DNA of 64,000 nucleotides from Antedon mediterranea (taxonomy: Eukaryota; Animalia; Echinodermata): positions 5,642,001-5,706,000 of the forward strand of contig NC_092680.1 of the NCBI RefSeq assembly GCF_964355755.1, written 5' to 3'. Numbering within the stretch: position 1 is the stretch's first letter; each line of letters starts with the position of its first letter. Below, one piece after another: positions 1 to 61,835 of the stretch. The notes below the pieces were generated by a model, which searched no databases, was not told the DNA's origin, and saw nothing but the letters and a program-made list of their open reading frames with translations. The position numbers and the translations under genes are program-made.

Positions 1-200
1 ATCTATTAATCTTTCTCATTTCAGTACGTAATTATTACATTTCTAAAGTTACTGTGTTTACGTTCAGTTATTAACAGAAAACGGTTTTAAAATGGAAAGT
101 TTTAAAAAAAAAGTAAATATCTTGGACTGGTGTTATTGGTGGTTAAAACTTGAGGTATTTAGGCCATGCTAATGTTACTTTTTTTTCGTCTTATTTTTAG

Positions 201-2028
201 CCCTCCAAAATTATACCTAAACTATGTTGTAACAATGTGGAAGAATGCATTGACAAAAGAGTTAGAAGGTCAACCATTGACAGGATGGGGGATAATAGCA
301 TGTGAAATACTAAATGGACTCATAAATCAGAAGGTAAATATTGCTCCCTTTCCTCAAATTTAAGAAATTTTGGATAGGGTTTAATAAACTTTACAACAAT
401 ATTATACTTGTGCTGTGTGTTACAACTGACTTTAATCTTGAATTTTAGGCATTTTGTATTAAAGATACGTAATATCAAATAACATCCAATTCATCACTAA
501 TTCTTCCTATCATTATCGTTTTCTTCGTCTTATTTTTTGGCTAGAATGGAATAATGACTTGAGAAATGCATTATAAATTATTGTTTATAATAATAACTTT
601 AATAATAATAATGTACACATAAAAATATACATACATACATTTTCAGCAGAAAAAAAAAATACAATTATTAAATAATTATGTTTTATGTGCACATTTTAAA
701 TGTTTGTAACATAATATTCTTTTAAAATATTTTTTTCACTTTTTGTGAGTGTTTTTATTTCATTACAGGCTTCTATGTTTGATATGACTGAGTTAGCCCC
801 GGGTGTAATGACTCTAATACGGGCGGACATCGATAGGTTAACTTCTTCTGCGTGTAGAGTGATATCATCCATGTACGAACAGATAGACGCACTTGCGCCG
901 TGGACAGAAGAACTCGTTGACCTTTTTTTAGACAACGATGAGATGTGTACTAGTATAGGAAGTATGTGATCAGATTAACGCTGCATTCACACTCTTTCAC
1001 AAGCGGAAGGCGGCGCCATTTTGTTCAATATTGGAAAGTGATTTTAAGAAATAAACGGTGCCGTCTTCCGTCTCGTAAAATGGAACAAGTTTGAATATAG
1101 CGTTAATAATCTCGATGTACGCCTATTAGTATTTAATCATCAATGAATGATAATGAAAATAGTCCATGTTATTAAACTAAATTTGAATTTAATAGTCTTC
1201 ATTATGACGTCACATTACCTAATTATCATATCAGCTCAAAATTATACAATAAGTTGGAACCATTGCATACAGTACACTGCTATATTATACACAAAGAATT
1301 ATAACGTAAAACAACATTGTGTATCTTTCAAAAGAACTTATTACTTTTGAAAGTATTTTAAAGACACAACTTATTTAGTCTACAACTTATCAATGGAAAT
1401 AGGATTTTTTCTTCTTCGTTGTCAATAAACCATTACTTTTATTATTGCCATCGGTCCCTTAATTTGTAGGAACATCAACATATTAATTAATTAAATTTCA
1501 GTATATCACCAGGCGGTTTAGAATTACTATTCTTTGCCTAATTTGTTTATATATATATATATTATTTTTTTGCACTTTATTTGTAGTGTCATTAAAACCA
1601 CTGTATATTAAATGTCCTGAGAAGATTATGAGTAAAATGGATTTAATCTTTGAAAAGTTACCGGACCTGGATGCGAACAGGAAACGATACCTTTATCTTT
1701 TCTTTGACAATATTTCGAAAACTTCCACTAAGGTAAGGCAAGAACAAACTGATTCATGGTCCAAACTTTGTCTTTACTTTTGAAACATCTCTTCAGTTCA
1801 AATCAAACATGTTTTCAAACAATATGACAATAAGGATTTATTTAATCATTATTACTATTATCAGTATTTATTCCAGCAATGGTGAGCTGAGATTTTATAG
1901 GTCTAAAGAACTGCAATAACATAAATTACGGTAAAAGCAAAACAACCAAATTCTTGCACCTGACAATGTAATCTTCAATTTGAAAATATATCAGTTATAT
2001 GCAGATACACTGATGTGGTTTTTAAGAC

Positions 2029-2061
<33 letters not shown>

Positions 2062-5000
2062 AATAATATTAATAATTCAATTCCAATGTGATGACACACA
2101 CAACATATTTAAAATAATACGGAATTATTACTTTGTTTTCAAAAGTCTTCATTGTTTATTTTCAAAACCCATCCAGTATTCCAATGTGTCAGCCGATTTT
2201 CGGATCTGTATCTACAATTTGTCGAGTATCAAATATATACAATGTATCTTGTCTTTTACATGTGACGTCTATATCATAGGCCATATAAGGCCATATAATA
2301 AGCCTCAACTATACATTTATCTAAACTTCCGTGATGCAGACGCCACATATGAAACTGTATTATGAAATTTGAATAGATGATACTCGACAAAATAATGTCA
2401 TTGGGCAAATACATTACAACATTAGGCATATTGGTCTACAACAAAATAAGTGAGTGCATTATTTACAATCTAATATTTATGCTATAGTCTTGTTCTTTTT
2501 TACAGACATTTGTGCCACATATTGATACCTTAATTGAAGATATCAATGAGTCGGATATTCGACACAAAGTTCTTATGGTGCTGTGTGAAATTGCGGCGAA
2601 ATACCCAGAAAAATTTGTTAATCATATTGAAAGTCTTACTGGGCTATTAGATTCCGATTCAAACACAGTGTACTTCGTAGATAAGATAGTTGCCAGTGTT
2701 GGAACCGTTAATAAGGTACGTGGTGGAAATTCAAATGTAAACGAAAAGTGCCTTTTGATATTGAATTTGCAATTTGTTAAGTTTATTTTACTTTCCTTTT
2801 CCTAATTTTATAGGAATGGGCAATCAAAATCCTAAAGATTTTAATTGATCAGCTTCAGACAGTACAAACGTGCTACCATGTCTACGTTTTAATGGAGTTG
2901 AAAAGAATAGGACATATATTTCCTGAATGTTTAACAGAATATAGAAAAGAAATAGAGGCCATGAAGGGAAGTTCACAGACGGGGATAAAAGACATAGTGA
3001 TTCAACTCATTGATGTTATGGAAGGAAGAACGTAAGTAACTTGAGAAATGGAAAATCAAGCGCATGGAAAAGGGACTTTGGGGTGTAGAGGTTGGAAAAA
3101 AGCTTTATTCTTGGGAAGATACCCACACCCCAATTCGGTCCCTTCCTAAAATCCTGTGTCCGCACCGTTAAATGATGTCCTGGTGTTTTTTTCTCTATAC
3201 GATAGTTTGGAAGGTTTACACGAGAACATTGTAGACCAGCGAGAGGACATCGAGGTATTGGATACACGGGTGACAAACACAGAAAATAACGTTGCAGAAG
3301 TTACAGAGAAAGTTGAGGAACAAGGAAGGGAAATAACGGCTGTTAAAACAGACGTTGCAGAACAAGGACAGAAATTGGAAGAGTTAGAAGAAGTTGTAGA
3401 TGAAACTGTTTTAAAAGTCGACGACATAGATCATAAAGTAAGATTTATTCTTCATATTTAACATTTTAGATGGGACCTACGTGTTATGTGATTATAAGAA
3501 ATTAATAAATAAAAAAATTTAAAAAATGGATGAAAGATTGCAATATTGAAGTAAAATCCTCAACATGAAAAAATCGTCTGACAAATCTGCATTTTCTAGA
3601 CGATTACTAATGCACCAAAATGGTCACGTGATGTTTCAAAACTACTAAATCCAGAAGCTGACTACGATTGGAGATTTTTGGCGATACGTCTCGGCTACTC
3701 GGGGGAGGACATTCGAAACTGGGCGTTGTCACCCGACCCGACTATGGCAATTCTTGCCGAATGGTACACGACCCATAAAAGTAGTGATGCAACATATGCA
3801 ATACTGACGGCGTTAGAAGATATGGGACAAGCAGAGGCTGTAAAGATAGTTGAAGAATCTTTAGAACAAGCAGGTAATCAAGCACACATAAATAAAAATA
3901 CAATTTATTTTTAGTTTTTTTCTCAAGAACGAATAATGTATAATCATTACTGTATAATGAAAAGCAATCGTGTTCCTAATTCAGATTTTTATTGAAATTA
4001 TAGATGCAATGGTTCCAAAATTAGAACCCGGAATATCAGAGAAACCGCCAAAAGTATTCATTAGTTACCAATGGGATCATCAATCTGAGGTGAAGGCTAT
4101 AAGAGATCATCTTGAGATGGCAGGATTTGCTTGCTGGATGGACATTGGTCAGATGGGAGGTGGAGATAATTTATATGCAAAAATCAACGAAGGAATGAGA
4201 GCTGCTAAAGTTGTTCTATGTATGACAACTGACAAGTATTCAAAATCTGAAAACTGTAACAAAGAGGTAAAAAGAAATTTACTGATTAACTAGGCTATAT
4301 CTCTACGACGCTTTCAACAAATTATAGCATTATTTAAATTACTTTAAATACTAAATACTTTATTTTGTTTATCCTCATTACAGGTGAACTTGGCGAATCT
4401 GCTCAACAAGCCAATCATACCGATCCTTATTGAGCGTACAGTCTGGCCTCCGGAAGGACCAATGAGCATGCTTTTTGCTCAGCTTCTTTACATCCAATTT
4501 TTCACGGATAAGCATAACGTCAGAGGAGATAAATTTTGGGTTGATACCAAATTTTGCGAGTTATTGGCGCAAGTTAGTTATTATGCTGCTCCCGATCTTG
4601 ACAAAATTACTGACGGTAAGTGAAGATTCTATTTAAATATTGAATGTCCTACTGTAGCCTTTTCTTCCTTTGTGTATTTTATGTTTCAGAAGTATTCGAA
4701 ACGTATTATAACCACCTAATATCATTGATTGATTTACGAATCACGTTTTTCTTTTTTCAGAATACAAAAGTTGGGTACCAACTGTTGAAGCACCTGAGCA
4801 AGAAATAAAACAAGCTAAGAAAGATGATAAAGGCGGTGAAACCAAAGTGGTAGAATCTGAGCAGGTAATTTTCACTAATTATACAGGAGTATACAAAAGG
4901 TATTTAACGTAAGCTCACAAACATACAAATAGTAATATTAGAAATAATACGCCCTTGTAATCTATATATAAGGGCAAAATTCGGTAAATCACGCGTTATT

Positions 5001-6684
5001 TCTAGAATGTTTACTCGGTAGTATATAAAGTTCGTTCGTACTTTCGGTCCTGATTTTAACCACCTGAAGTAACCCTGTTTACTAATTAAATTGAGTTCGA
5101 TAATTAGTTATTGACAATTAAAACGAATTTAGGTTCAACAATTTGCCCCTAATAGTGGTGTTTTCCGTGGTATAAACTGTCTAATGGATGTCCATCTTGA
5201 AAAATACCCGCACACAATAATACGAGGATGCTTCGCATTTTCTTATCTCCTCCTACGATAATTGGTTTAATGGCTGAAAACCATTTGTTTACAAAACAAA
5301 AGTTTGTTTAAAATGAGTCCTTTCGGAAGTAATTTTCAGGGTGCTAATTTTAGTTGACTACATAAATCATCGTGTCTATTTATTCGTTTCTGTAAACGAC
5401 AATGTATTATACTAGTCCTGCGGTACGTACATTTGAAATCGCCAGTTTTTTTACGCTGAAATTACTGTGTATTCGAGAACGTCCATCTGGGCACGACCTA
5501 GATGGTACCCGAGCGAAGCGATCTAGTTATATTAATTACCCTTTATTGAGATGCATTGATTAATGTATTGCTCTACAAATGGGTTCATTTACAAAACGCT
5601 ATCAAGTCACTAACTTAATAAACGAATAGCTTTTCCTAATTTATTACCAGTTCTGTTCTTTACTTAGCAAGCGGAAATCGAACCAGAAGTCTTCATATCA
5701 TACCAATGGGATCATCAACCACAGATAAAGGTCTTGTACCAACGACTGACCAGTCTTGGTTACTCGTGTTGGTTGGATATCAAACAAATGGGCGGAGGAG
5801 ATCCACTGTATAGTAAAATCGACAAAGGTCTTCGCAAAGCTAAGGTAAGTCAATTCAACTCTATTATTTACATACTACTAACTATTGTAAATAAACAATA
5901 ATATAATAATGTACCTAACCTACCTAAATATTCGAATACTAGCTAAAGGACACAATTAAGTGCCACCGTACTTTTTTTCAATGTATGTACAATGTTAATA
6001 CTATATAAAAACGCGAAGATCGTACTATCAAGGTTAATTATTAGGTTTAATATTTTGTCTATATGATTTTTATAATAGGTTGTAATTTCCTGCGTTACAC
6101 CGAAGTATTCATTGTCCGCCAACTGCCGTCGTGAAGTCAGTCTATCAGATGCTCTCCGTCGACCAATCATTCCAATCCTTCTCCAGCAGATGGCGTGGCC
6201 ACCAGAAGGTCCAATGAGCATGACATTTACGCAACTTCTCTACATTGACTTCACCAAGGAGTCAAGTCAGGAAAGTTTTATCGACGAACAATTTGACGAA
6301 CTTATTATAAAAATTAATGAACATGCGCAGGCTGTAGAAGGTAAAACGTCTGCGAAACTATCTACACCTGATCAGCCGAAACCAACATCGGAAGATTCGA
6401 CACCTGAAGAACCAAAGTTCGAAGATCCGAATCACGAAGAATCAAAATGTGAAGATCCAAAACCTGAAGAACCAAAGTTCGAAGATCCGACACCCCAAGA
6501 ACAACAGTTCGAAGATCCGACACCCCAAGATCCAAAACCCGAAGATCCAAAACCCGAAGAACCAAAACCCGAAGAACCGAAACCCAAGGTACATGCTCCT
6601 AAAGAAATACCGCGGCAAACAACCCCTAATCCACCTGAACCAAATAAACAACACAACAAATCTAAGGCATGTTGCGTTTTATGA
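201..6684 (+). CDS. HEAT/ARM-like - coiled coil - Death - TIR - TIR - EDPKP repeat - CaaX protein, paralog 1 (5' part lies before the window)
   Basis: 12 exons with GT-AG boundaries and consistent phases: 201-333, 769-961, 1587-1732, 2506-2715, 2814-3031, 3206-3437, 3600-3873, 4004-4266, 4384-4615, 4761-4864, 5668-5844, 6079-6684. Death-like motif [19 protein letters not shown]...AILAEW. TIR box1 VFISYQW occurs twice, with WMDI/WLDI and NCNKEV/NCRREV. Ends KSKACCVL-stop. The first 11 exons match paralog 2 in length. Confidence 0.9.
976..1106. mobile_element. Small degenerate MITE-like inverted-repeat element
   Basis: ttaacgctgcattca...tgaatatagcgttaa ends, plus an inner gcggaaggcggcgcc / ggtgccgtcttccgt pair. 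Only the left half survives in paralog 2 (about 16305-16356), so it predates the duplication. Confidence 0.55.
4961..5526 (+). mobile_element. Non-autonomous Helitron (short derivative)
   Basis: Starts TC(TATATATA), ends CTAG, sits between A and T with no TSD. Absent from the matching paralog-2 intron (about 21430). Both ends match the element at 39527-36983. Confidence 0.85.
6386..6590 (+). repeat. Coding 15/30-bp tandem repeat ([10 protein letters not shown]) in paralog 1
   Basis: Repeated gaagatccgaaaccc/gaagaaccaaagttc-like units. Confidence 0.9.
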
Positions 6685-7491
6685 CTTTTCATCAAAACGT
6701 TCCGTGTTTTTGTATTATCATTTAATATTTCCTAGCTTTTAAAGCATCCCCTAAGTTCAATGCATTTTGTCCACGTTGTGTATAACACCAATTGGTGCAA
6801 CTCTAAGCTAAAAGTTTAGATTTCATTTGACTAAAGTATCTTAAACATTTGTTTAGGCATGGAGAAACTAATGGTGTATTCATGAATAAAAAAGAAACAA
6901 TGTAGGCCTACCTTCCTCTTCCATGTCTGGTGTACTAACATCGTCTTGCAGTAGGCATATATTTCCAATTGTCTATAGCATTAGGTGAAGGCCACGAACG
7001 ACACACACACGTAATAATGACTTAAAATTCCTCAACAAATTCTCTAGCTTGTAACTCAAAACGGATCTAGCAAAAATAAGCAATTACATTAATTAAAGAT
7101 GAAATGAATGAAGAGATATCTTGTAAGGTCTATTTCCAGGCCAGGCCAGGCCAGCCCAGCCGGAGTAGTAAATGGACCTCTCGACCGGCGACGAGGTTGT
7201 AACGTAACGTGACGTATTATGACGATAAGCCCACTGAATAGCACTTTCAATTTTCCGCATTTCTTTGTTACGTAATTTTTAAAGTAGAATCTCGGTGTGA
7301 CGTAATCAGTTAATTTGCCAGTTCACAGTTTCCAAAGCTATTATGTGCGTATCTTACACGTTAAATAAATAAATTGGCGTTTTCATGTTTGATATTTCAT
7401 AAAATGAAATCAAATCAAATCTATTTTAAAGCTAATTCTACATTATTAATGAAGTTTTTTTCTTCAGATTATACAAAAAATGTACAATATT

Positions 7492-7745: not shown

Positions 7746-8636
7746 TGATTGAAATCAGTGTGTATTGTATTTTAGGTCTTAGAAGACTCCCTTGAAAATA
7801 TTACATGTTATTCTTTTATTATAAAGTTTGATTTTTCCCATCTGTTCTTCTACAGTATCTTGATTAAATTAAAGCTATGCTTACCTTACCTTTATCTCAA
7901 GATTTATTAGTCGATTTTTATAGAAGCTGTTTCATTATATTTTCTTTAATTAGAAGTAAAATAATTAATTACCGTTTCAAACTGAATCTAATTTAATGCA
8001 AATGTACAATAAAATAGTGTTTTTTAAAATTATAATTTACAAAAAGGTATTGAAAAATAATTATATATTATATATTATATAGTAGTTTAATTTATGTGAA
8101 GTAGTTGACTATACATGCTGCATGTTGTATTTTCTCTAATTATTTAGTTTATAACTATGGATTATGGTTATTATGAATTCATGAAATAAAAAATAAAATA
8201 AATTTTAAGTGTGTGAAATATAGTGTTTGTAATTTGATTCTTCAAATAATAATAATTATTATATTCAAATACACTTATTCTGCACGAGTGTGTTATAGCA
8301 ATTATATGGGCTTTATGGTTGAACTTGAAGGACGTACTGAGGTAAGGAAAAATAATTTTAAAAAAATTAATTATATATAATATATATATATATATATATA
8401 GAATTAATGTTCTTTGCCTGATTTGTTTATATATATTTGTATCTCCATTGAGCCAGCCACTGATACCCACAGCATTGTCATTTTTTCAGTTATTTGCCTT
8501 TGGAATTATATATATATATATATATTTATACAGTAGGCAAAGAACATTAATTCTAAACCGCCCGGTGATATACTGAAATTTAATTAATTAATTTGAAACG
8601 ATAAAGATGAGGAAATCTGTGAGAATGAGAAAAAGT

Positions 8637-8708
8637 CGCCCCAACCGAGACTCGAACTCGGACCGTCTGCTTGATATGCAGTTGCCCTAACCATTAGACC
8701 ACTGGGGC
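8637..8708 (-). tRNA. tRNA-like cloverleaf, anticodon ATC; probably a tRNA-derived repeat head or pseudo-tRNA
   Basis: GCCCCAG-TG-GTCTAATGGTTAGGGC-A-ACTGC-ATATCAA-GCAGA-CGGT-CCGAG-TTCGAGT-CTCGG-TTGGGGC-G, 72 nt. A and B boxes intact, followed by a T5 run. Non-canonical A32 and a 27:43 mismatch. Confidence 0.55.
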
Positions 8709-8998
8709 TTTCATGGTATTGTTCAAACTCGATTGGATAGCGACTCTTTAACATTCTCGGCGTGGTACGGCGGAACAGCACTAGTCCTCAGTTGTACACA
8801 CGCGCACCAGAGATCAAATTGATACGCCCTCATCTTACAGTATTTTTATTCACGAGGCGGGATCTCCGAAGAGATACTTTTATATATAAACACAGTAGGC
8901 AAAGAACATTAATTCTAAACCGCCCGGTGATATACTGAAATTTAATTAATTAATTTGAAACGATAAAGATGAGGAAATCTGTGAGAATGAAAAAAAGT

Positions 8999-9070
8999 CG
9001 TCCCAACCGAGACTCGAACTCGGACCGTCTGCTTGATATGCAGTTGCCCTAACCATTAGACCACTGGGGC
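8999..9070 (-). tRNA. Second tRNA-like cloverleaf (ATC) with one acceptor-stem mismatch
   Basis: Same sequence 362 bp away. 3' end is TTGGGAC-G, followed by a T7 run. Confidence 0.45.
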
Positions 9071-9367
9071 TTTCATGGTATTGTTCAAACTCGATTGGAT
9101 AGCGACTCCTTAACATTCTCGGCGTGGTACGGCGGAACAGCACTAGTCCTCAGTTGTACACACGCGCACCAGAGATCAAATTGATACGCCCTCATCTTTC
9201 AGTATTTTTATTCACGAGGCGGGATCTCCGAAGAGATACTTTTATATATAAACACAGTAGGCAAAGAACATTAATTCTTATTAATTTAAGTATTTATATA
9301 AACACATCGGGCAAAGAACATTAATTCTAAACCGCCCGGTGATATACTGAAATTTAATTAATTAATT

Positions 9368-10229: not shown

Positions 10230-13200
10230 ATGAAACGGGCAGAGGTCGAAGCGGTTGTAGTTGAAATCTCAGAATCAATTGAGGATTTTAAGTACATGCC
10301 AAAACTGATTAAAGCAGTGACTGAATTTGAAGAAGAGGAGGATGTCAGAAGGCGGAACATGCGAGTATTAACAAATGTCATTGACAAAGTACTTTCTGCC
10401 GCTAAAAAAAGGTTTGTCATACGACATTTTATTTAAACTGTTTTAGTTATTTGAATAACTAAACAGGCCTAGTAGCATGTAGGCCTAGTTACTAAGTTAA
10501 GCTAAGTAACTGACTTCAAGGAATGGTATATATAAGAATATTTAAGAGCGTATTTATTTACTCACACAGAATCCTCCTAATTTGTTATAAGTTATTGGTG
10601 GACAAAACTTAAAACATTATAATTTACTTCATTACTTTACTAAAGCGTGTGGTTCCCACTACTAGCGACGCAACGCAAGGACGTAACGCAACGCAAGTGA
10701 ATTGACCAATCACAAGCGATGGCTTATTCGCTTGTGACTGCTAACTGTCTATAACTTCGCTTGTCATTGGTTAAAACGCTTGCGTTGCGTTTACGTCCTT
10801 GCGTTACGTTCTAGTGGGAACCAAGCTTTAAGGGCTTAACAGCAAATAGTTCAGTACGGTACATAAGAATAGACGGATACATTATTTATAGACTTACTAC
10901 CATATTTAAATGAAATAATGACTAATTTAACATATTTTTCTTTTAAATTGTTGAAATATGTATTTAAATTTGTTTGGATACAGCAAGGGTAAAGAGTCTA
11001 AAGCATTCGCCGGACTTGCAGTTGCCATGGCAGAGACGAAGATGTATACGTACTGTAGCAGACTGGAAACTATATTTAAAGACCGGAACATCGTCAATTG
11101 GAAAGTAAAGCTATTTCTTTATTTTAAAGGTTCTCCCCCAAAGTCTAGATTAAATTAGGATAAATTACTTATCTTAGAAATTCATGTTTTAATTTGTTGG
11201 CAATGGAGAGAGACAGAGTAAGGAATGGTTGCCGCATTCTCACTCTTTCTCCTATTGGTCGTTATGTGGACGCGCTGCCCGGGCTTCATCCAGTAAAAAT
11301 CGGAATTCCCCGCGCTATGTGCAGCCATTGATAGGGCACTTTATATCATGTGATATACACAGTCGTTCAATCGATGACCGGAATCTCTTTATGTGTTTTA
11401 TTTTGTTTACCAATTTTAATTGGTCAAAAACTTAAGACCACTTAAAAGTAGTCGTAAGGTTTTTTTTATGAACGAATACTCTCAATAAAATTCCTAATTA
11501 GTATTATTATATTATCTATTATTCTTCAGTTTTTCTTCAGTTCTCAGGCCAATATATTTTTAATTTTTTATCTTGTTTATTAAGGACCACTCAACAGAAG
11601 CTATACAAATAATAGAGTCATTCATGGAACCAACAATGACTGACCATGAACATGCTAAAGAAAAAAGATATTTTAACATAGAAATGGTCGCAGCATTTGT
11701 GTAAGTAGGCCCTACAGTACGCTTAAAGATCTATTTTCCCCCTGAACATTTTTTTTAATATGCCATTTTAATATCACATAATAGTTATTTACATTGAACA
11801 AAAATTGAACTGAAAATAAATTATTTATCTTTATTTTTAAAAAAAATAGTCAAATTTACAAAAGCCCGTTCGGGCCACTAGTTAATTATATTTTAAGAGC
11901 TGTTACCAGGTGGCCGCCAGATAACTATCTAGCGGACGCCACTTAATTATCTGGCGGAAGCCACTTAATTATCTGTCTGTATTGCATCAACAAGTATGTT
12001 TGCTTTGACATACACTATGACGGCAAATACAATGTTGACGCAAATATTGGAACTTAGATTTAACGAAAAAAATATTGGCATGGTAAAAATGCAATTATTC
12101 GAGATATATCCTATTTTTTATAATTTACACTTTATATTAGGGCTCGGAAATATTTGGGTAATTTATCCTATTTTATTTATAATTTGGGCTTGGTTATGCT
12201 TAGGTAGGACTTGACCTGGGCTATGGGCTTTTGTCACAAGAGAATGTACAGTGTCTGGCGGTCAGATGACGCAATACAGACAGATAATTAATGGCGTCCA
12301 GAAGATAATTAAGTGGCGGCCGCACGATAATTAACTGGCGGCCGCCAGGTAACAGCTCTTAAAATACAATCAACTAGTGGCATGAACGGGCTTCCGTACA
12401 AATTGGCAGCCGGTTGAATTTAACCGTTTGTCAATTTTGAAAACAATTTTTTCGGGGTTTTTTTCTATGGAAGGGATTAACATTGGTAAAACTATAAAAT
12501 ACCTTATTCAAAGTCTAATATTAATTTTTTTTTTCCTAATTTTTTTTAGACAACAATACATCTTTAATAATAAATAACATTATACAAATAAATGGTGTTT
12601 TTCTGTGTATCCCTCTATTGACAGTATTAACACCTTTCTACCTAATTAAAAATAATTATACAGTATTTACTGTCTTTTATTCATTTATTTGTACATTTTA
12701 TTTTTCTAATATTTGACAGCACCGAACATTGGTACATTCTTAAAAAATATGTTTTAAAGTGGATGCAATAACATTACAGAATCCTTCCATCATTTTTAAC
12801 ATAGTATAGGCATATTAGGCCTAACTTAATTCATAATTAAAATCGAATAAACATAAGAGAGGTTTCGCAATCTTACGAATACGATAACGAAAACGGATAC
12901 GTCACACATTTTGTGAAACTTTTGAGCTGATCCCCATTTCATATTCGTAAAGCGTATTTGTGTTGACGAATATCACCAGTCATATTCGTAACTACAAAAC
13001 GAGTAGGCCTATAGTTTTTGATCTATTTTGCACATTTTGCATTTGAATCAGGAATGATTCATGATTATAATATAATTATACTTTTATTGAAAGTAATTTA
13101 CTAAAGTAATTTACTAAAATGCCAGGTAAATTTTGATAAATAGCAATTTTTAAAGTCTTCACTCGCTTTGATGTTACGCTCGGCCTAGGCAGCCAAGCAC

Positions 13201-16200
13201 CAAGCAACACGTACTGCGCTTCCCTCACATTTACCGCAGTCATATTTTGGGAGGCGCCCTCAATATTTCGTTGCAATGCGAAACTTTTTTACTGGCTTAC
13301 GAAAAACGAATACGTGTGCGTGACGTATCCGTTTTCGTTATCGTATTCGTAAGATTGCGAAACCTCCCTATTAACATAGAAAAAGGATCAATAACTATAA
13401 AAGCATATTAGGCCTACATCGTAATACGGTCTGCTCGATGGAGTTTGATCGACAATACAAAATAAACGCTTCAATTTGAAACACAAAGCTAATTTAAACG
13501 TATTATATTGTTTAAATAATAATATACAATTTAATCATTACTGTATAGTAACTTTTGTACAGGTGATATTCGTCTTTAACTGTTTTTCTTTATTTTATAG
13601 ACGAGATAAGGTGGCTAAGAAAATTGAAATCAAGCTTGTACAACTGTTGATAAATTGTCTTGAGAAATTCAACTATATTAATCTTAAGGTTGCTTTAGGA
13701 TTGACATATCGCTGGGATTTTAATGTTGAAGTAAGCTATTTATAGTTTAATCTCGTATCTAAGAAAGTTTAGATATTACTAAAAGGCTAGATTGATTAAA
13801 GATGTAGGCATATTGTCCCTTGAAACACAAAAAAAATGAAGGTCAAAATATTCTAAATTTAAATTGGCCATATCAAAGTAATATTAAAGTTATTCACTTT
13901 AAGTCGAAAATTTACGTATTTAACAGGTAAATTAATTTGATTACATTTCGTCTGGAAAATCGTCGCGAGCGAAAGTAAACAAAGATTTCAGAACACGAGT
14001 ATGCATTATGTGTGATGCTAATTAGGATAGTTTACAACTCGTCACGGTTGAAAAGGTGTTTTCACATAGATCGCGAGAAGTTTTATGATTATGCATACAG
14101 AGTAGCCAAATTAGCGTGTTGCATTATGAGATATGTTTTGATCGAAACTTTGACTGGAAGTCAAAGTTATTTTTTTAACAAAAAAGTATGTATTTCAGTT
14201 AAATGATTTTTTCTTCGACAAATTTTTGGTGATAGTTAATAACTATTATGATACTTCAAAATTACCCACATTTTTCGAAATATTTTTTTAAAATTTTTTT
14301 GGAATTAGTCAAAGGAACAATACATCTTTAACATTTGTAAACACGACAGTAATAGTAATCAATCGATGATAAGGTAAATTTATTCATAGCATGTGTGCTA
14401 TACAGACTAGCAAGCAAAGCTTTACGGCTAGTTACACTTTCATTAGAAAGGTATATACTACGGAAGTTTTTCTATAATATCTGTACATTTTTAACTGGCT
14501 GTAATTGGCACATTAATCGAATCTATTATCAAACAAAAACTACAATACTTTGGACATATTGCCAGACGGGATGGAGATAGTATGGAGAAAATGATTATGT
14601 TTGGGAAAGTTGAGGGGAAACGAAAAAGAGGAAAACAGAGACCCAGATGGATTGATGGTATAAGTGGTGCTGCAAACCGACCAATAATCAGTTGCTACAA
14701 TGAAGCTCAAGATCGGCAAGAATGGAGACACCTCATCAGAATGGTCACGAGTACTCAGATATGAGTAGAACGACGAGAGAGTAATTGAATATTATATAAA
14801 TAGTTCTAAGGCATTAGGAACTTTAAACCGCCAATTAATTTACAGAATTGTTTTTATATTCTTATTTGATGGAGATCCTGAGATGATCTGATACCGGTGT
14901 TTTTTTTTTGTGTCTGTCTTTGTATTTAAACTTATTTTATGCAATTGATTTTGTAACTATGGACGTCCGTTTCCGAAATAAATACAAAATGAATGAAATG
15001 AAATAAACGGAAGATTATGTTCGATCATGTAATTTCAAATAGGGCATTTGCTAACGAAATTAACTACTCTGTAGAAAGCTAATGCTTGTGTTTTCAAATG
15101 GGTTATCTAATCGATAATTAATTGTTACTTAAAGGACAGGACTATTATACTCAAGTTAATAAAGACTATTGATGAGTGGATGACAACATTTGATGATATA
15201 ATGGCAAAAGACAATCGTCCCCTCGAACTAAGGCTTGTGGAAGAGTCGTTGGAAATTGCATTTGAATCCAACTGGTAAGAAACCAAGCTTTTGAACGATA
15301 AGCCATTGTTTTAGTTTTTCACCTTAGACCTATTAATCTTCCTTATTTCAGTACCTAACTAATTACATTGTAAATTTACTGTGTTTACGTTCAGTTATTT
15401 AACAGAAAAACGGTTTTAAAAATGAGAGTTTAAAAAAATGAAGTAAATATCTTGGACTGGTGTTACCGGTGTTTTTAAACGAAAGCGGAAAAAACGAATG
15501 ATTTGAGGTGTGTAGGCCATGTTAATGTCATTTTCTCCCATTTTTTAGCCCTCCAAAATTATACCTAAACGATGTTATAAGAATGTGGAAGAATGCATTG
15601 ACAAAAGAGTTAGAAGGTCAACCATTGACAGGATGGGGAATAATAGCATCTACAATAATAAATAAACTCATCATTCCAAAGGTAAATAATATTGCTTTTA
15701 ACTTTACAAAGTACTCCTATTTCTCATTTTGGACAGAGTTTAACAAAACATTACAACAATATATATTTATGTTGTGTGTTATAACTTTAATCTTGAATTT
15801 TAGGCATTTTGTATTAAAGATACGTTATATCAAATAACGTCCCATTCATCACTAATTCTTCCTATTATCATCGTTTTCTTTGTCTTTGGCCTGAATAGAA
15901 TAAAAATACTAAAATTTATTATTATTATACATTATTGTTTATAACTTTAATATTAATGTACATAGAAATATGTATACATACCAGCTGAAATTAATACGCT
16001 GACATTAATTAAATATTTGTTTGGTTCACATTTGAAATGTTTGTAACAGGACATTCTTTTCAAATATTTTTTTTGGAGCGTTTTTATTTCATTTACAGGC
16101 TTCTATGTTTGATATGACTGAGTTCGCCCCGGGTGTAATGACTCTAATACGGGCGGACATCAAGAAGTTAACTTCTTCTGCGTCTAGTGTGATATCATCC

Positions 16201-19200
16201 ATGTACGAAAAGGTGGACACATTTGTGCCGTGGACAGAAGAACTCGTTGACCTTTTTCTAGACGACGATGAGATGTATACTAGTATAGGAAGTATGTGAT
16301 CAGATTAACGCTGCATTCACACTCTTTCGCAAACGGAAGGCGGCGCCATTTTGTTCTATTATTATTATTTAATCACCAATGAATAATAATGATATGGTCA
16401 ATGTTATTAAACTAAATTTGAATTGAATAGTCTTAATGATGACGTCATATTGTCAAAATATCATATCAGCTCAAAATATATAATAAGTTGGAACTATTGC
16501 ATACATTTATAGTACAAATTGTTGCCGGGGTATATTATACAAAGAATTATAACGTAGGCCTTGTTACAACCGTTAATGTAGAAAACGCCAGCTAATGTCG
16601 AAACAACCGTTAATGTAGAACAACCCACCGCTTATGTAGTAAAACCTCCAGCTTATGTAGAAACACCAACAGCTTATGTAGAAAATAAAAATCAACACCA
16701 GCTAATGTAGAAACAGTCAACAGCTTATGTAGTAACGAAAATTGCCTCCCAGCTTATGTAGTTACTATCGCCAGCTAATGTAGAAAATGTTATACATTTT
16801 ACAAATGCATCGATCTTTACTTAGCTATCAGTCTTTCCACCTTTCGTAAGCAACCAACTTTCTAAAACGACCCACATATCGTAACCAACCATCTCTGTTA
16901 AGAGACCCTTTCACATAATCGACCACCTCTCGTAAGGGATCACCTCCTCTCATAAGGGACCACTTCTCATAATCGACCACCTCTCTCGTAAGCGACCACC
17001 TCTCGTAAATGACCACCTCTTTTAAGGGACCATGACCTCTTTCTCTCTTTTAAAGAACCACCTCTCTTAACGTCCCCACCTCTCGTAAGTGACGACCTCT
17101 TTTAAAGGACCACCACCTCTATTAAGGGACCGCTTCTTATTGACCACTTCCGAGAGGTGGTCGATTATGATAAATGGTCCCTTAAAAGAGACGGTGGTCG
17201 TTCAATAGAGGTGGTCACTTACCAAAGGTCGTTGTGAGAAGCGGTTCTTTAATAGAGAGAAAGAGGTTGTGGTCCCTTAAAAGAGGTGGTCACTTACGAG
17301 AGGTGTGGTCGTTAAGAGAGGTGGTCGCCTACGAGAGGTGGTCGATTATGAAAAGCGGTTCCTTATGAGAGGAAGTGATCACTTACGAGAGGTGGTCTAT
17401 TATAAGCAGTGGTCCCTTAATAATAGAAACGGTGGACGTTCAATAGAGGTGGTCACTTACCAGAGATCGTTGTGACGGGAGATAGTCGATTATGAGAAGC
17501 GGTCCTTTAATAGAGAGAAAGAGATCGTGGTCCCTTAAAAGAGGTGGTCATTTACGAGAGGTGTGGTCGTTAAGAGAGGTGGTCGCTTACGAGAGGTGGA
17601 AAGACTGATAGCTAAGTAAAGATCGATGCTTGCACATGAATTATAGACATTTTTGTAAAATATATAACATTTTCTACATTAGCTGGCGATAGTAACTACA
17701 TAAGCTGGGAGGCAATTTTCGTTACTACATAAGCTGTTGGTGTTTCTACATAAGCTGGAGATTTTACTACATAAGCGGTGGATTGTTATACATTAACGGT
17801 TGTTTCGACATTAGCTGGCGTTTTCTACATTAGCGGTTGTAACAGGCCTAAATCAAATATTTGTGTTGAAAAGAAAATCTTTCAAAAAGAACTTATAATT
17901 ATGTTGAAAATTATGTCCATTATACAAACATTATTTAACTTCTAAATATAGTCTACAACTTACCAATGGAAACTAACTTGAAAATGTTTTCTTTTTCTTC
18001 GTCAATAAACCCTTACTATTATTATGGCCATCAATTATTAAATTTGTAGGAATATTAAACAATTATTATTATTTATTTTTAGGTTCATTAAAACCACTGT
18101 ATGTTAAATGTCCTGAGAAGATTATGAGTAAAATGGATTTAATCTTAGAAAGGTTACCTGACATGGATGCGAAAAGGAAACACTATATTTATGTTTTATT
18201 TGACAATGTTTCGAAAACTTCCACTAAGGTAAGGCAAGAACAAACTGATTAAATATTCCTATAGATAAACAACTGGTCCGAACTGGTCCGAACGTGGTCA
18301 TAATTTTGAAGACATGCACTATCTTCAGTTCAAATCAAAACACTAGGCACAATATAATAAGCGGCAGGTCCAAGAGCTTGTTTAGAGAGCGCCCATTGCC
18401 ACCTCTCTACAAACTTTAAAGTACACTAAATCCTTTGTTAGCCTAAACCCTTAATAGTAATTCAGAGCTGTACCGTTGATCGAAAATTCACTGCGGTCAT
18501 CCTCAAATCCAAGATGGCGTTCAAAATTGCCGGCATTTCTAACACAAGCCTAAGGTTTAAAAACTGTACATGTTATCAAACAATATGAAAATAAGGATCT
18601 ATTTAATTATTATGATTATCATTTCACCATAGTTAAAGGTGACCCAGAAAGGGTGAGCTTATTTTAAAGGACCCTCAACAAGACAAGACGACACACAATA
18701 ACAAACAATATAAACAAAATATAAGCAAATTAAAATGTATCTAATCTTCCATGATACAGACTCCCCATGTGACACTGTATCACGGAATTTGAATGTGATA
18801 CTAAAAAAATAATGTCTTTGTGGAAATACATCACAAAACGACGCATATTGGTCTTTAAAAAAATAAGTAAGTGCATTACGCCAATTTACTATGTATTATT
18901 ATAATATTTATGCTATAGTTGTTTTATTACAGACATTAGTACCACATATTGATACTATCATTGAAGATATCAATGAGTCGGATATTCGATACCAAGTTCT
19001 CATGGTGCTTGGTGAAATTGCTGCGAAATACCCAGAAAAATTTGTTAATCATGTTGAAAGTATTAATGGGTTATTAGATTCCGAACCAAACACAGTGTAC
19101 TACGTAGATAAGATAGTTGCCAGTGTTGGAACCGTTAATAAGGTACGTGGTGGAAATTCAAATGTAAACGAAAAGTGCCTTAATATTGAATTGACAATTT

Positions 19201-22200
19201 GTTAAATATATTTTACTTTCTTTGTTCAAATTTTATAGGAATGGGCAATCAAAATCATAAAGATTTTAGTTGATCAGCTTCAGACAATACAAACGTCCTA
19301 CCAGGGTATCGTTTTAATGGAAATGAAAAGAATAGGCCATAAATATCCTCAATGTTTAACACCATACAGAAAGGAGATAGAGGCCATGAAGGGAAGTGCA
19401 CAGATGGGAGTACGAGACGTGGTGATTTCACTCATCGATTTTATGGAAGGAAGAAGGTAAGTCACTTGAGATGGACGTACAAATTCTGTTTTTCTCACGA
19501 AAATCAAGCGCATGGGAAAGGGAAACCTTTTGGGTTGTTAAGGTTATCAAAAAAAGCTTTATTCTTGGGAAGATATCAACACCTCAATTCGGTCCCTTTC
19601 CAACATCCTGTGTCCGCACCGGTAAATGATGTGCTGGTGTTTTTTCTCCTCAATACGACAGTTTAGAAGGTTTACACGAGAACATTGTAGACCAGCGAGA
19701 GGACATCGAGGTATTGGATACGCGAGTGACAAACACAGAAAATAACGTTGCAGAAGTTACAGAGAAAGTTGAGGAACAAGGAAGGGAAATAACGGCGGTT
19801 AAAACAGACGTCGCAGAACAAGGACAACGATTGGAAGAGTTGGAAGAAGTTGTTGATGAAACCGTTGTAAAAGTCGACGAGATAGATCATAAGGTAAGAT
19901 TTTATTCCTTATATTTAACATTTAAGATGGGATTAACAATCCTTTTCATGTGATTCACACAAATTATAGACTTACAGTACGTGTGATGTGATATGATAAG
20001 ATAAGAAATGGATGAAAAGATTGCAATATTTAAGTAAAAACCACATATCTATGACAACATTTCTGACAAAATCTATTTTCTAGACGATTACTAATGCACC
20101 AAAATGGTCACGTGATGTTTCAAAACTACTAAATCCAGAAGCTGACTACGATTGGAGATTTTTGGCGATACGTCTCGGCTACTCGGGGGAGGACATTCGG
20201 AACTGGGCGTTGTCACCGGACCCGACTATGGCAATTCTTGCCGAATGGTACACGACCCATAAGAGTAGTGATGCAACATATGCAATACTGACGGCGTTAC
20301 AAGATATGGGACAAACAGAGGCTGCAAAGATAGTTGAAGAATCTTTAGAACAAGCAGGTAATCAAGAACACATAAATACACATTTTCTCATTGACAATTA
20401 ATATATAAACATTACTGTATAATGAAAGCCAATCATGTTTCTAATTCAGATTTTCATTAAAATTATAGATGCAATGGTTCCAAAATTAGGACCCGAAATA
20501 TCAGAGAAACCGCCTAAAGTATTCATTAGTTACCAATGGGATCATCAACCTGAAGTGAAGGCTATAAGAGATCATCTTGAGATGGCAGGGTTTGCTTGCT
20601 GGATGGACATTGGTCAGATGGGAGGAGGAGATAATTTATATGCAAAGATCAACGAAGGAATGAGAGCTGCTAAAGTTTTTCTGTGTATGACAACTGAGAA
20701 GTATTCGAAATCAGAAAACTGCAACAAAGAGGTAAAAAGAAATTTACTGATTAACTAGGCTATATCTCTACGACGCTTTCAACAAATTATAGAAATCTTA
20801 CTCACATGGTAACTTTAAATACTAAATACTTTATTATGTTTATCTTCATTACAGGTGAACTTGGCGAATCTGCTCAACAAGCCAATCATACCGATCCTTA
20901 TTGAGCGTACAGCCTGGCCTCCGGAAGGACCAATGAGCATGCTTTTTGCTCAGCTTCTTTACATCCAATTTTTCACGGATAAGCATTACGTCAGAGGAGA
21001 TAAATTTTGGGTTGATACCAAATTTGCAGAGTTATTGGCGCAAGTTAGTTATTATGCTGCTCCCGATCCAGAAAAAATTACTGACGGTAAGTGAAGATTC
21101 TATTTAAATATTGAATGTCCTACTGTAGCCTTTTCTTCCTTTGGGTATTTTATGTTTCAGAAGTATTCAAAACGTATTATAACCACCTAATATCATTGAT
21201 TGATTTAGGAATCACGTTTTTCTTTTTCAGAATACAAAAGTTGGGTACCAACTGTTGAAGCACCTGAGCAAGAAATAAAACAAGCTAAGAAAGATGATAA
21301 AGCCGGTGAAACCAAAGTGGTAGAATCTGAGCAGGTAATTTTCACTAATTATACAGGAGTATATAAAGAGTATTTGACGTAAACTCACTAACTAAATAGT
21401 AAATATTAGAAATAATAAGCCCTTGTAATCATATTAATTCAATAATTTATTGCTGATTGTAGAGATGGATTGATGTGTGCTCTACAAATGGGCTTATTTA
21501 CAAAATGTTATCAAGTCACTAACTTAATCAACCATAGCTTTTCCTAATTTATTACCAGTTTTGTTCTTTACTTAGAAAGCGGAAATCGAACCAGAAGTCT
21601 TCATATCATACCAATGGGATCATCAACCACAGATAAAGGTCTTGTACCAACGACTGACCAGTCTTGGTTACTCGTGTTGGTTGGATATCAAACAAATGGG
21701 CGGTGGAGATCCATTATATAGTAAAATTGACAAAGGTCTTCGCAAAGCTAAGGTAAGTCAATTCTACTCTATTATTTACATACTACTATTGTAAATAAAC
21801 AATAATATAATAATGTTCCTAACCTACCTAAATATTCGAATACTAGCTAGTGTTCTAAAGGACACAATTTTAGGTGCCACCGTACTTGTTTTATGTATGT
21901 ACAATTTTAATACTATTTAAACACGCGAAGATTGTACTACCAACGGTACTCAATGCACAGTTGAGGTTAATTATTAGGTTTAATATTTTTGTCTATGAAT
22001 TGTATTATAGGTTGTTATTTCCTGCGTTACACCGAAGTATTCATTGTCAGCCAACTGCCGTCGTGAAGTCAGTCTATCAGATGCTCTCCGTCGACCAATC
22101 ATTCCGGTCCTTCTCCAGCAGATGGCGTGGCCACCAGAAGGTCCAATGAGCATGACATTTACACAACTTCTCTACATTGACTTTACCAAGGAGTCAAGTC

Positions 22201-22898
22201 AGGAAAGCTTTACCGACGAAAAATTTGACGAACTTATTACAAAAATTAATGAACATGCACAGCCTGTAGAAGGTGATACGTTTGCAAAACCATCTACACC
22301 TGAACGAGTTTCTGATCAGCTGAAACCCACATCCGAAGATTCGAAACCCGAAGAACCAGAGTTTGAAGATACGAACCCCGAAGAACCAAAGTTCGAAGAT
22401 CCGAACCCCCAAGAATCAAAGTTCGAAGATCCGAAACCCGAAGATCCAAAACCCGAAGAACCAAGACTCGAAGATCCGAAACCCAAAGAACCAAAGTTCG
22501 AAGATCCGAAACCTGAAGATCCAAAACCCGAAGAACCAATGCTCGAAGATCCGACACCTAAAGAACCAAAGTTCGTAGATCCGAAACCCCAAGAACCAAA
22601 GTTCGAAGATCCGAAACCCGAAGAACAAAGGTTCGAAGATCCGAAATCTGAAGAATCAAAGTTCGAAGATCCGAAATCTGATGAGTCAAAGACCAAGGAT
22701 CCGAAATCCGAGGAAGCAAAGACCGAAGAACCGAAACCAGAGGACGCAAAGTCTGAAGATCCGAAATCCGAAGAATCAAAGTCCGAAGATCCAAAACCCG
22801 AGGTACATGCTCCTAAAGAAACACCGCGGCAAACAACCCCTAATCCGCCTGAACCAAATAAGCATCACAGAAAATCTAAGGCATGTTGCGTTTTATGA
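10230..22898 (+). CDS. HEAT/ARM-like - coiled coil - Death - TIR - TIR - EDPKP repeat - CaaX protein, paralog 2 (apparently complete, about 1252 aa)
   Basis: 17 coding exons: 10230-10411, 10984-11104, 11585-11700, 13601-13730, 15135-15274, 15549-15681, 16099-16291, 18083-18228, 18933-19142, 19239-19456, 19662-19893, 20084-20357, 20469-20731, 20855-21086, 21231-21334, 21576-21752, 22011-22898. Total 3759 nt, in frame. ATG in ACCATGA context just after an acceptor at 10218. The first five exons have no in-window paralog to confirm them, so they are less certain. Confidence 0.88.
10642..10829. mobile_element. MITE (PIF/Harbinger-like)
   Basis: TIR aaagc..tggttcccacta / tagtgggaaccaagcttt. Subterminal acgcaaggacgtaa / ttacgtccttgcgt. 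Confidence 0.75.
11727..12563. mobile_element. Kolobok-like non-autonomous element carrying a nested MITE
   Basis: ttaa|agatctattttccc ... acaatacatct|ttaa termini. Related to the element at 13800-14327. Confidence 0.55.
11859..12396. mobile_element. MITE with long TIRs, TA-flanked
   Basis: aagcccgttc..ccactagtt-att-tattttaagagctgttacc is mirrored by ggtaacagctcttaaaatacaatcaactagtgg..gaacgggctt. Subterminal taattatctggcgg repeats. Confidence 0.8.
12857..13368. mobile_element. MITE, about 510 bp, about 47-bp TIR (Harbinger-like)
   Basis: gagaggtttcgcaatcttacgaatacgataacgaaaacggatacgtcac and its reverse complement at the other end. A near-identical copy in opposite orientation is at 33898-34397. 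Confidence 0.9.
13800..14327. mobile_element. Kolobok-like non-autonomous element
   Basis: ttaa|agatgta..tattgtccc ... ggaacaatacatct|ttaa. Confidence 0.55.
14535..14782 (+). mobile_element. RTE-clade LINE 3' fragment
   Basis: Translates [42 protein letters not shown]...AQDRQEWR, the typical RTE ORF C-terminus. Confidence 0.85.
16557..17848. mobile_element. Foldback-type DNA element, about 1.3 kb, imperfect palindrome with modular subrepeats and TA TSD
   Basis: ta|ggccttgttacaaccg...cggttgtaacaggcc|ta. Outer cagc(t/a)atgtag repeats and inner gaccacctct repeats are mirrored on both arms. The empty site ataacgTAaaac is at 1307-1308 in paralog 1. Confidence 0.9.
22335..22803 (+). repeat. Expanded coding 15/30-bp tandem repeat ([10 protein letters not shown]) in paralog 2
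   Basis: Same units. The last-exon ORF is 284 aa here versus 190 aa in paralog 1. Confidence 0.9.
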
Positions 22899-24244
22899 TT
22901 TTCATCAAAACGTTCTGTGTTTTTGTATTATCATTCACTCTTTCCCACCTTTTAAAACATCCCCTAAGTTCAATGAATTATGCATCATTTGGTGCAACTC
23001 TAAAGTTAAAAGTTTAGATTTCTTTTGAATAATGTATCTTAAACATTTGGACATGGAGAAATTAATGGTTTATTAACATGAATACAATAAAAACAATGTA
23101 GGCCTACCCTTTTCTTCCATGTCTGGTCTAGTCTAACGTCGTCTTGCAGTATATTTCTAATTGTCTAAAGCGATGATAATGTTCCTGCAATATTGCAAAC
23201 TCATTGTACTTTTAGGAAACGAATTAAAAATATAACGACCAAAAATTCCTCAAAGAACTTCCGAACATTGAACTCAAAACGGCAATGTATCTATCAAAAA
23301 ACAAGAGCAATTGCACAAAATAGAAACAAGTGGAGAGATCTTGTAAGGTGTATTCCTATGTCAGCCCATATGTAAAATGACGTATAGCACTTTCAAATTT
23401 CCGCATTCCATTGTTACGTAATAGTAGTAGAATTTCGTTGTGACGTGATCAGTTTAATTGGGCAGCTCGCAGTTCAACTCTTTCGCAAGTTTAACTGATA
23501 ACATTTAAGTGTAGGCCTATGTGTATGCATATCTTTTTTATTTTAAGGCAATATCTAAATTATTTATGAAGTTTTTATTCAGATTATATAAAAAAAGGTA
23601 CCGGTACTTTTAAACAATATTTTAATGTATAGATGGTAGTATACTAGATGTAGGCCAGAATAGCCTATAAACTATGATGTAACTATAAGCAAAACTTTTC
23701 TTTATTAAATAATTATATAACTGCAGGTTGTTGGAATTCAGATCTGTCTTAGTAGAGGAAAGCAAGTAATGTATCATTAAAATAATGTGTAATTATAATT
23801 GCAGCAATACTTTTTAAAATTTTAATTTATTTGATTTATAAACATTTATAATATCAATAATATGTACAGGTATATTATATAGACACGGTATAAAAGGAAC
23901 ATGTATTTAAATTGTCACTGTAATGAAGTATAGTTTTATTAATTTCAAAAAGGAAGAGTTTTTATATAATATTTATATATACATCAGACATAGCCTATAC
24001 CTTCCATTGGAGAAAATGCTTTGGACGGTTGTTTTACTCATAACAAACCCAACTAGGCACATTATACATTTCTATTTATATGATCTGGTTTTCATTCAGT
24101 ACTCTATATTTTATTCTGTATCCATTATTATAACCACGAAAGGAATTGTTTTTCTATAAATTATATTGCAAATATGTTTTACTCTGCTTTGTTATTCAGG
24201 TCTTGGAAATAAAACGACTCTTTGAATCTAAAGTACTACTGTCA

Positions 24245-26598: not shown

Positions 26599-51034
<24,436 letters not shown>

Positions 51035-56115: not shown

Positions 56116-61835
<5,720 letters not shown>

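Follow-up and report, generated by a model that had tools for sequence, protein, structure and literature searches.

Tandem ecTIR-DC6 paralogs in Antedon mediterranea with a fast-evolving HEAT/ARM solenoid: possible diversification of a candidate sensor face after duplication

The nearest described relatives of the genes studied here belong to ecTIR-DC family 6 (ecTIR-DC6), which was reportedly defined by Gerdol et al. in 2017. An architecture of ARM-like region, Death domain and two TIR domains has been assigned to this family, and a role in transducing TLR signals suggested for it in clam gills (PMC6836662); other papers describe a raised level of the family in mussel gills (PMC5549309), list a MyD88-like Aplysia member that has an Armadillo fold (PMC9334734) and treat ecTIR-DC functions as hypothesised only (PMC6321704). 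In SARM1 an ARM domain keeps the protein inactive, NAD+ being cleaved through E642 when the TIR domains meet (PMC7688312), and the SARM1 TIR clusters with mainly bacterial TIRs (PMC13142454). In sea-urchin TLRs selection falls on the concave face and the TIR domain is conserved (PMC3367398). The available portions of PMC7075850, PMC4346834 and PMC2575513 held nothing specific on mechanism. Here we describe two adjacent genes, copies A and B, in a 64,000-nucleotide stretch of the Antedon mediterranea genome (contig NC_092680.1, positions 5,642,001 to 5,706,000; hereafter the window). The explanation we favour, with a probability of roughly one half, is that these are tandem ecTIR-DC6 paralogs in which the solenoid evolves at a near-neutral rate with changes concentrated on its predicted inner helices and the rest of the protein is under purifying selection, and that the binding face of a putative sensor is diversifying after duplication.

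Copy A is represented by its last 12 coding exons (exons 6-17; 201..6684, forward strand), with exons 1-5 upstream of the window; its exons are GT-AG with an open frame, and its first 805 codons correspond to residues 247-1051 of the public protein P0004, identical throughout. Copy B (10230..22898, forward strand) has 17 coding GT-AG exons encoding 1252 amino acids in an intact open frame. In a self-comparison of the window, positions 1-7,330 recur at 15,330-23,474. The domain order in both copies is HEAT/ARM solenoid, coiled coil, Death, TIR, TIR and CaaX tail. Exons 6-10 of copy A (201..3031, forward strand; 201-333, 769-961, 1587-1732, 2506-2715 and 2814-3031) encode the second half of the solenoid, residues 247-546, and their counterpart in copy B lies at 15549..19456 on the same strand.

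The two parts of the gene differ in replacement divergence and agree in silent divergence. Between A and B, 63/300 amino acids differ in exons 6-10 (nonsynonymous divergence, dN, 0.111; synonymous divergence, dS, 0.124) and 22/505 in exons 11-17 (dN 0.020, dS 0.112), where the last exon contributes its first 78 codons and the repeat tail is excluded. The amino acid contrast is strong when pooled (Fisher p=5e-13) and dS is equal between the halves (p=0.77); all divergence comparisons reported here are pairwise. A maximum likelihood (ML) codon model gave dN/dS of 0.97 for exons 6-10 and 0.18 for the rest (p=1e-14), with a shared age of 0.116 neutral changes per site, and the solenoid value stayed at 0.92-0.97 under three codon-frequency schemes. 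The hand counts of the initial annotation were reproduced: 20/73 residues differ between 2814-3031 and 19239-19456, 3/77 in the coiled-coil exon, 3/91 in the Death exon and 1/59 in the first exon of the second TIR domain, and exon 201-333 differs at 9/44, with all quoted peptides present. Among single exons, the dN/dS of exon 10 is 0.68 because its dS is also high (0.226), whereas the value of 2.7 for exon 7 was set aside because only 1.5 synonymous differences underlie it. Because dS is equal while dN/dS differs, the contrast between the halves is, on codon-level evidence, almost certainly a product of selection rather than of conversion of the effector half.

The A helix of a HEAT repeat can be recognised by its proline-kinked motif. 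The A helices of such repeats line the outer side and the B helices the inner side (PMC3190738). Mapping the variable residues onto a predicted solenoid had been proposed in the initial annotation, and with labels taken from DSSP, the HEAT motif and an alignment to beta-adaptin the A/B differences favour the inner helices. Inner segments differ at 44/164 residues and outer segments at 19/136 (p=0.007), or at 37/130 and 17/118 when strict DSSP helices are used (p=0.009), and when the labels were shifted circularly 3/300 placements reached the observed inner count, the unshifted labelling among them. By ML, dN/dS is 1.33 for inner and 0.58 for outer segments (p=0.0012), the outer value lying below 1 (p=0.035). 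Polarising the 63 differences assigns 27 to copy A, 23 of them inner (p=0.0015 for the enrichment), and 22 to copy B, 10 of them inner, leaving 14 unassigned. The pattern is reversed in deeper ortholog pairs, with inner and outer values of 0.27 vs 0.42 (p=0.007) and 0.48 vs 0.62 (p=0.015), and the pooled inner/outer odds are 1.53 for five independent paralog pairs and 1.03 for six ortholog pairs (difference p=0.015). In residues 158-246, which lay outside the data from which the idea was formed, 19/37 inner and 14/52 outer residues differ between A and B (p=0.026), and here B is the changed copy at 18 sites, A at 6, with 9 unassigned. Copy B has changed mainly in residues 102-246 and copy A mainly in the inner helices of 247-546. 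We incline slightly to the view that adaptive change on the inner face contributes.

The initial annotation had placed sharp divergence within 201..3031. This region is fast, but the most divergent part of the solenoid lies further upstream, in exons 3-5 (copy B 11585..15274, forward strand; 11585-11700, 13601-13730 and 15135-15274). Compared with P0004, copy B differs at 16/39 residues in exon 3, where it is also 16 codons shorter through a 16-residue deletion, at 17/43 in exon 4 and at 16/47 in exon 5. For exons 1-5 dN/dS compares codons of B with residues of A and assumes the shared age of the gene. On that assumption exons 4-5, taken without helix labels, give 2.0 (p=0.002), or 1.8 (p=0.012) when a low-divergence tract described below is omitted; their inner segments give 3.6 (p=1e-5), exons 1-2 about 0.55, and all inner segments of residues 158-546 1.65 (p=0.008; 1.46, p=0.047 without the tract). 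In exons 4-5 A and B share 14 residues that are absent from three other crinoid proteins, and B shares 0-2 with any one of these; because of the 14 residues shared with A, this part of B was not borrowed from those older copies.

Downstream of the solenoid, exon 11 of copy A (3206..3437, forward strand, as are all copy A features below) encodes a predicted coiled coil, which matches coiled-coil Pfam families below cut-off and forms a helix at residues 547-600 of the model. Exon 12 (3600..3873) encodes the Death domain (PF00531, E=1.4e-9; above cut-off at residues 637-709), for which the best match in the PDB is the Death domain of p75NTR. The first TIR domain, TIR1, is encoded by exons 13-14 (4004..4615) and the second, TIR2, by exon 16 and the start of exon 17 (5668..6312), and PF13676 (TIR_2) matches in two stretches above cut-off (E=6e-48). 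An Adaptin_N match at residues 211-489 falls below the Pfam threshold. The AlphaFold2 model (mean pLDDT 73.5, pTM 0.47) has a helical solenoid at residues 1-546, mostly at pLDDT 80-95, followed by the long helix, a Death bundle, two TIR folds and a disordered tail. Fold and profile matches include ARM/HEAT proteins (ARM structures at Z 21, rmsd 3.5 over 250 residues), beta-adaptins, SARM1/TIR-1 and bacterial TIRs; TIR-1 and SARM1 are the top two Foldseek matches, the ESM Atlas returned generic HEAT look-alikes, and a profile search seeded from the N-terminus matched only the five crinoid proteins. Pfam found no SAM family in 6/6 proteins, the coiled coil and Death domain occupying that stretch, and no NACHT or NB-ARC family at E<=0.1 in the same six, and the model contains no LRR strands. 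No signal peptide or transmembrane segment is evident by eye in P0004.

Glu802 in TIR1 (codon 4264-4266) aligns with the glutamate of the SARM1 HKEIV motif, which we take to be E642; the corresponding residue of TIR2 is Glu992 (codon 6133-6135). Among 58 proteins with the full architecture the glutamate is conserved in 55 TIR1 and 55 TIR2 domains, and in both domains of 53. TIR matches in the PDB are to SARM1, to Cat1 and to bacterial TIR proteins, among them the NADase AbTIR. The two TIR domains may be active NAD+ enzymes, a reading that we put at even odds. The C-terminus carries a 30-bp repeat coding for an acidic, proline-containing tail (6391..6585, 6.5 copies in A; 22334-22801, 15.6 copies in B), then a basic patch and a CaaX-type end, Cys-Cys-Val-Leu-stop (6670..6684; in copy B 22884-22898). 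Cysteine occupies position -4 in 50/58 full-architecture proteins, against a Cys background of 1.7%, and 42 end in Leu or Ile; of the 30 named proteins with the motif, 26 hold three to five Lys or Arg in their last 15 residues. The motif is missing in 8/58, some of which may be incomplete models. A CaaX box ending in leucine is usually a geranylgeranylation signal, and the tail is very probably prenylated.

Several observations weigh against the reading of a diversifying sensor face. Within 201..3031 dN/dS does not exceed 1 (0.97, with a profile interval of about 0.67-1.42), nor does it in the inner helices alone (p=0.17; 1.18, p=0.42 without the tract), and the diversifying selection proposed for this region in the initial annotation is suggested by the inner/outer asymmetry and, conditional on age, by exons 4-5, not by the overall ratio. 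The inner and outer labels come from the sources named above rather than from coordinates, and the partition was picked after inspection of the data from among several, with uncorrected p-values. The difference between paralogs and orthologs falls to p=0.05-0.08 without the A/B pair and is not repeated in residues 158-246 (1.83 vs 1.46), where orthologs also lean towards the inner side. For exons 4-5 dS does not come from these exons themselves, as the corresponding DNA of copy A lies outside the window, and at an assumed dS of 0.30 even the inner-helix excess disappears. By one conservation measure A/B changes strike conserved sites as often as variable ones (20/104 vs 13/64), although by a second they are depleted at conserved sites (13/100 vs 24/98, p=0.045). 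The rate contrast is also shared: among 27 family pairs compared, the solenoid-to-rest distance ratio is 6.1 for A/B and as strong in orthologs, at 6.9 between two Asterias species and 5.0-5.7 in sea urchins, with 2.3-3.9 in deeper pairs, 1.0 and 1.9 in two sea-cucumber pairs and 9-21 in three Diadema pairs. By these distances the solenoid generally outpaces the rest of the protein in this family, and the contrast is not special to A and B. Foldseek matches to the whole model score low (TM-score 0.10-0.24), and the TIR matches to SARM1 are weak (E 2e-4 to 7e-3).

The initial annotation had also proposed, as an alternative or an addition, that gene conversion homogenised the effector half; on a conversion-only account the 5' half would age normally. 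A tract of about 560 bp (4334..4893, from the end of intron 13 to the start of intron 15; counterpart about 20800-21365) does look converted: 6/300 near-neutral sites differ there (permutation p=2e-4), against 239/2488 (9.6%) of such sites in the comparison. Its linker is identical in copy A and P0002 (0/38) yet differs from P0005 at 14/38 positions, and because this linker normally evolves fast the tract fits conversion among three copies. Conversion is the likely origin, although the tract could instead be a conserved non-coding element; an Rfam scan found tRNA-like repeats only, none of them within it. The introns flanking exon 14 are unusually alike (4/96 and 3/135 strict columns differ), in line with the earlier remark on near-identical introns at 4267-4760, but that span consists of two short introns plus exon 14 and reflects this local tract only. 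The proposed check of per-exon dN/dS against intron divergence gave a mixed answer: beside the equal dS of the halves, the 5' introns are more diverged (138/1061, 13.0%) than the 3' introns outside the tract (49/553, 8.9%; p=0.014). The copies may for this reason be older than the shared age implies, which would lower dN/dS and is a further point against the favoured reading; the closeness of the 3' introns could stem from partial conversion at an earlier time or from biased alignment of the long 5' introns. The end of intron 5, with 19/173 columns differing, fits the shared age. A model with different ages and a single dN/dS is rejected (p=1.4e-5), whereas a shared age for both halves is not (p=0.69); fourfold sites differ at 9/87 in the 5' part and 19/189 in the 3' part, dS is highest in the coiled-coil exon (0.25), and single-copy orthologs show the same contrast. 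Conversion of the whole effector half is thus largely refuted as the main cause and very improbable. Trees of the N- and C-terminal halves disagree solely on the position of P0002 and P0005, at one short branch, and were not used as evidence of conversion. Least credible of all is that A and B are alleles misassembled in tandem. The copies are adjacent and share one architecture, and the depth of read run X1 is 38-50 over B-specific contigs and 55-69 over A-specific ones; however, X1 holds a separate two-allele bubble inside A (43.4 + 27.8), run X5 from a second organism contains an A-like piece (155 nt, 5 differences) as well as B-like pieces, and four family records lie on one 22.27-Mb contig. 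We take A and B as true paralogs because X1 contigs and X5 pieces support both.

A serious rival is relaxed constraint, in which an always fast solenoid drifts neutrally in redundant duplicates, perhaps with sensing lost, and the effector half stays useful. The solenoid dN/dS is indistinguishable from 1 (p=0.88), orthologs show the same 5-7-fold contrast, A has altered residues conserved across echinoderms (M382L, P455S, F541V), B has lost 16 residues, and exon 14, inside the tract, has 6 nonsynonymous and 2 synonymous differences. Set against this are the outer helices, which stay below 1 where the inner do not, the inner placement of A-assignable changes, the excess above 1 in exons 4-5 beside about 0.55 in exons 1-2 at the gene's age, and the open frames and canonical splice sites of all 17 exons of B and the 12 of A in the window. 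The data would also agree with constraint lost from the inner face only, and we consider relaxed constraint unlikely but worth keeping in view. Alternatively, the protein may be an adaptor or scaffold that relays host receptor signals, its solenoid co-evolving with fast-changing host partners and sensing nothing. Death plus TIR resembles MyD88, TLR transduction has been proposed for ecTIR-DC6 in clam gills (PMC6836662), echinoderm TLR families diversify fast (PMC3367398), and adaptin and coatomer trunks, to which the solenoid is similar, bind host proteins. Yet the parts that would contact TLRs or kinases, the TIR and Death domains, are the conserved ones; no MyD88 or TLR TIR appears among 12 and 45 PDB sequence matches, and the glutamate is retained in both TIRs of most members. 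The MyD88 layout is not present either, with the Death domain beginning near residue 630 and two TIRs, whereas the long ARM-like N-terminus, central Death domain and paired TIRs of ecTIR-DC6 are. We regard the adaptor as rather improbable, and the features together suggest a likely lipid-anchored, SARM1-like sensor-enzyme.

Were the sensor reading correct, the protein would sit at the cytosolic side of a membrane, secured by its basic patch and by a geranylgeranylated CaaX tail that serves as anchor, and the inner face of the solenoid would bind a protein ligand, which could come from a pathogen or be a host protein that has been altered. The bound ligand would free the coiled coil and Death domain or draw them together, the two acting as the clustering unit; the clustered TIR domains could then meet and cleave NAD+ in the manner of SARM1, and/or the freed Death domain could recruit a partner. 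The ligand-sensing role of the solenoid is putative. A complex prediction for the solenoid and TIR-TIR of P0005, run without alignments, scored 0.01 and is evidence neither way. A bolder and more doubtful proposal is that ecTIR-DC6 proteins are overlooked animal intracellular immune receptors without LRR or NACHT: membrane-patrolling prenylated HEAT sensors, possibly decoys of adaptin or coatomer trunks, with a tandem TIR NADase and an inner face re-tuned at each duplication across echinoderms.

The architecture has already been described, and copies A and B are further members of ecTIR-DC6. A protein search with the Death exon gave 35 matches, of which 30 entered alignment A1 (partial P0020, P0028, P0029, P0031 and P0032 were omitted) and 23 of these the trees. 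P0004 and P0001 are named Antedon mediterranea, and two further copies, P0002 and P0005, lie on the same 22.27-Mb contig; P0001 is a truncated copy B without exons 1-3 and with intron-6 sequence added. A profile search found the complete domain order in 58 of 182 proteins examined. The family occurs in echinoderms, hemichordates, molluscs, a nemertean and a leech and includes the Strongylocentrotus purpuratus 'MyD88-like protein L1' (P0011) and Aplysia LOC101858605 (P0060); one rotifer protein is Death-TIR-TIR. We rejected 44 short TIR-only matches as standalone genes, as the 6 looked up were unnamed and they may be fragments. P0126 and related matches from amphioxus and others are long, with a Death domain, one TIR and a CaaX-type end, and suggest related prenylated TIR families. 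In Diadema, P0012 and P0014 differ from P0019 at about 50% of the solenoid and at 1-2% of Death and TIR, a ratio near 20 and a stronger case for conversion or selection than the Antedon locus. Our literature search, which covered few subscription journals, no supplements and not the defining paper, found no publication on the CaaX tail, coiled coil, conserved glutamate or inner-face diversification of this family.

In the read data, a second, allele-like contig of copy A in X1 has Gln rather than Lys at residue 424 (window 2560, 2566), the state of copy B, so that one or more of the replacements specific to A may still be segregating. The first comparison with read-run contigs covered 40 of 570 differences and was swamped by intron repeats. 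For the A-like piece of the second organism the two differences listed are both replacements, too few to use. Run X8, presumed to be RNA, yielded a spliced TIR1 piece that is 25 letters off copy B and whose Death-exon changes match P0005; it has no joint for copy A exons 9-11, a blank that says nothing on expression. An X8 contig of 2380 nt at depth 149 covers 22520 onward with 4 differences and may be the 3' end of copy B or an overlapping ligase 3' untranslated region, the strand being indistinguishable. That ligase is a NEDD4-type ubiquitin ligase gene (26599-49400, reverse strand) pointing towards copy B, with HECT and WW exons matching Pfam and C2-like exons recognised by eye; one of its introns holds a minisatellite (47133-47656) followed by a reverse-transcriptase zinc-binding fragment (PF13966; 47696-48319). 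Beyond it lies a large exon of a p66/GATAD2-like gene (58099-59283, reverse strand), with P66_CC above cut-off and a GATA finger just below. A 362-bp tandem repeat, 98% identical (8519-9278), carries in each unit a tRNA-like sequence called as Asp with an unusual ATC anticodon and is likely a tRNA-derived SINE or pseudogene. Intron 7 of copy B contains a 1.3-kb insertion (16556-17850), an imperfect, foldback-like palindrome of short repeats at high depth in the four runs compared, and a MITE-like element of about 515 bp with 53-bp terminal inverted repeats occurs twice (12856-13370 and 33896-34398; 92% alike).

Conservation of the family reaches from molluscs to echinoderms and hemichordates, and until now its members have been classed as MyD88-like adaptors whose function is unknown. 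Copies A and B are naturally suited to comparison, as their output modules are nearly constant and their candidate binding faces differ; should the sensor reading hold, they would give animals a counterpart of plant TIR-NLRs and a second design on SARM1 lines. Among known systems, ecTIR-DC6 agrees in its long ARM-like N-terminus, central Death domain, two TIRs and occurrence in invertebrates, and differs in being treated there as a possible TLR adaptor (PMC6836662). MyD88 shares the order of Death then TIR, but here a 550-residue solenoid and coiled coil stand in front, a second TIR follows, the Death domain is closest to p75NTR and no MyD88 chain is among the PDB matches of the Antedon protein. 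Sea-urchin TLRs and plant TIR-NLRs share a variable solenoid, a conserved TIR and tandem duplicates, and the former also selection on a concave face (PMC3367398); unlike them, the proteins here have HEAT/ARM in place of LRR, no NACHT or NB-ARC Pfam family and few ecTIR-DC6-type copies per species among the matches. SARM1/TIR-1, which in SARM1 includes the nearest animal TIR in the PDB, likewise combines a helical-repeat regulatory domain, an oligomerising middle and a TIR with a catalytic glutamate. It has two SAM domains where these proteins have a coiled coil and Death domain, one TIR to their two, and an N-terminal mitochondrial signal where they carry a C-terminal CaaX; and whereas SARM1 is a single-copy metabolite sensor, the genes described here encode a larger, fast-evolving solenoid in multigene clusters.

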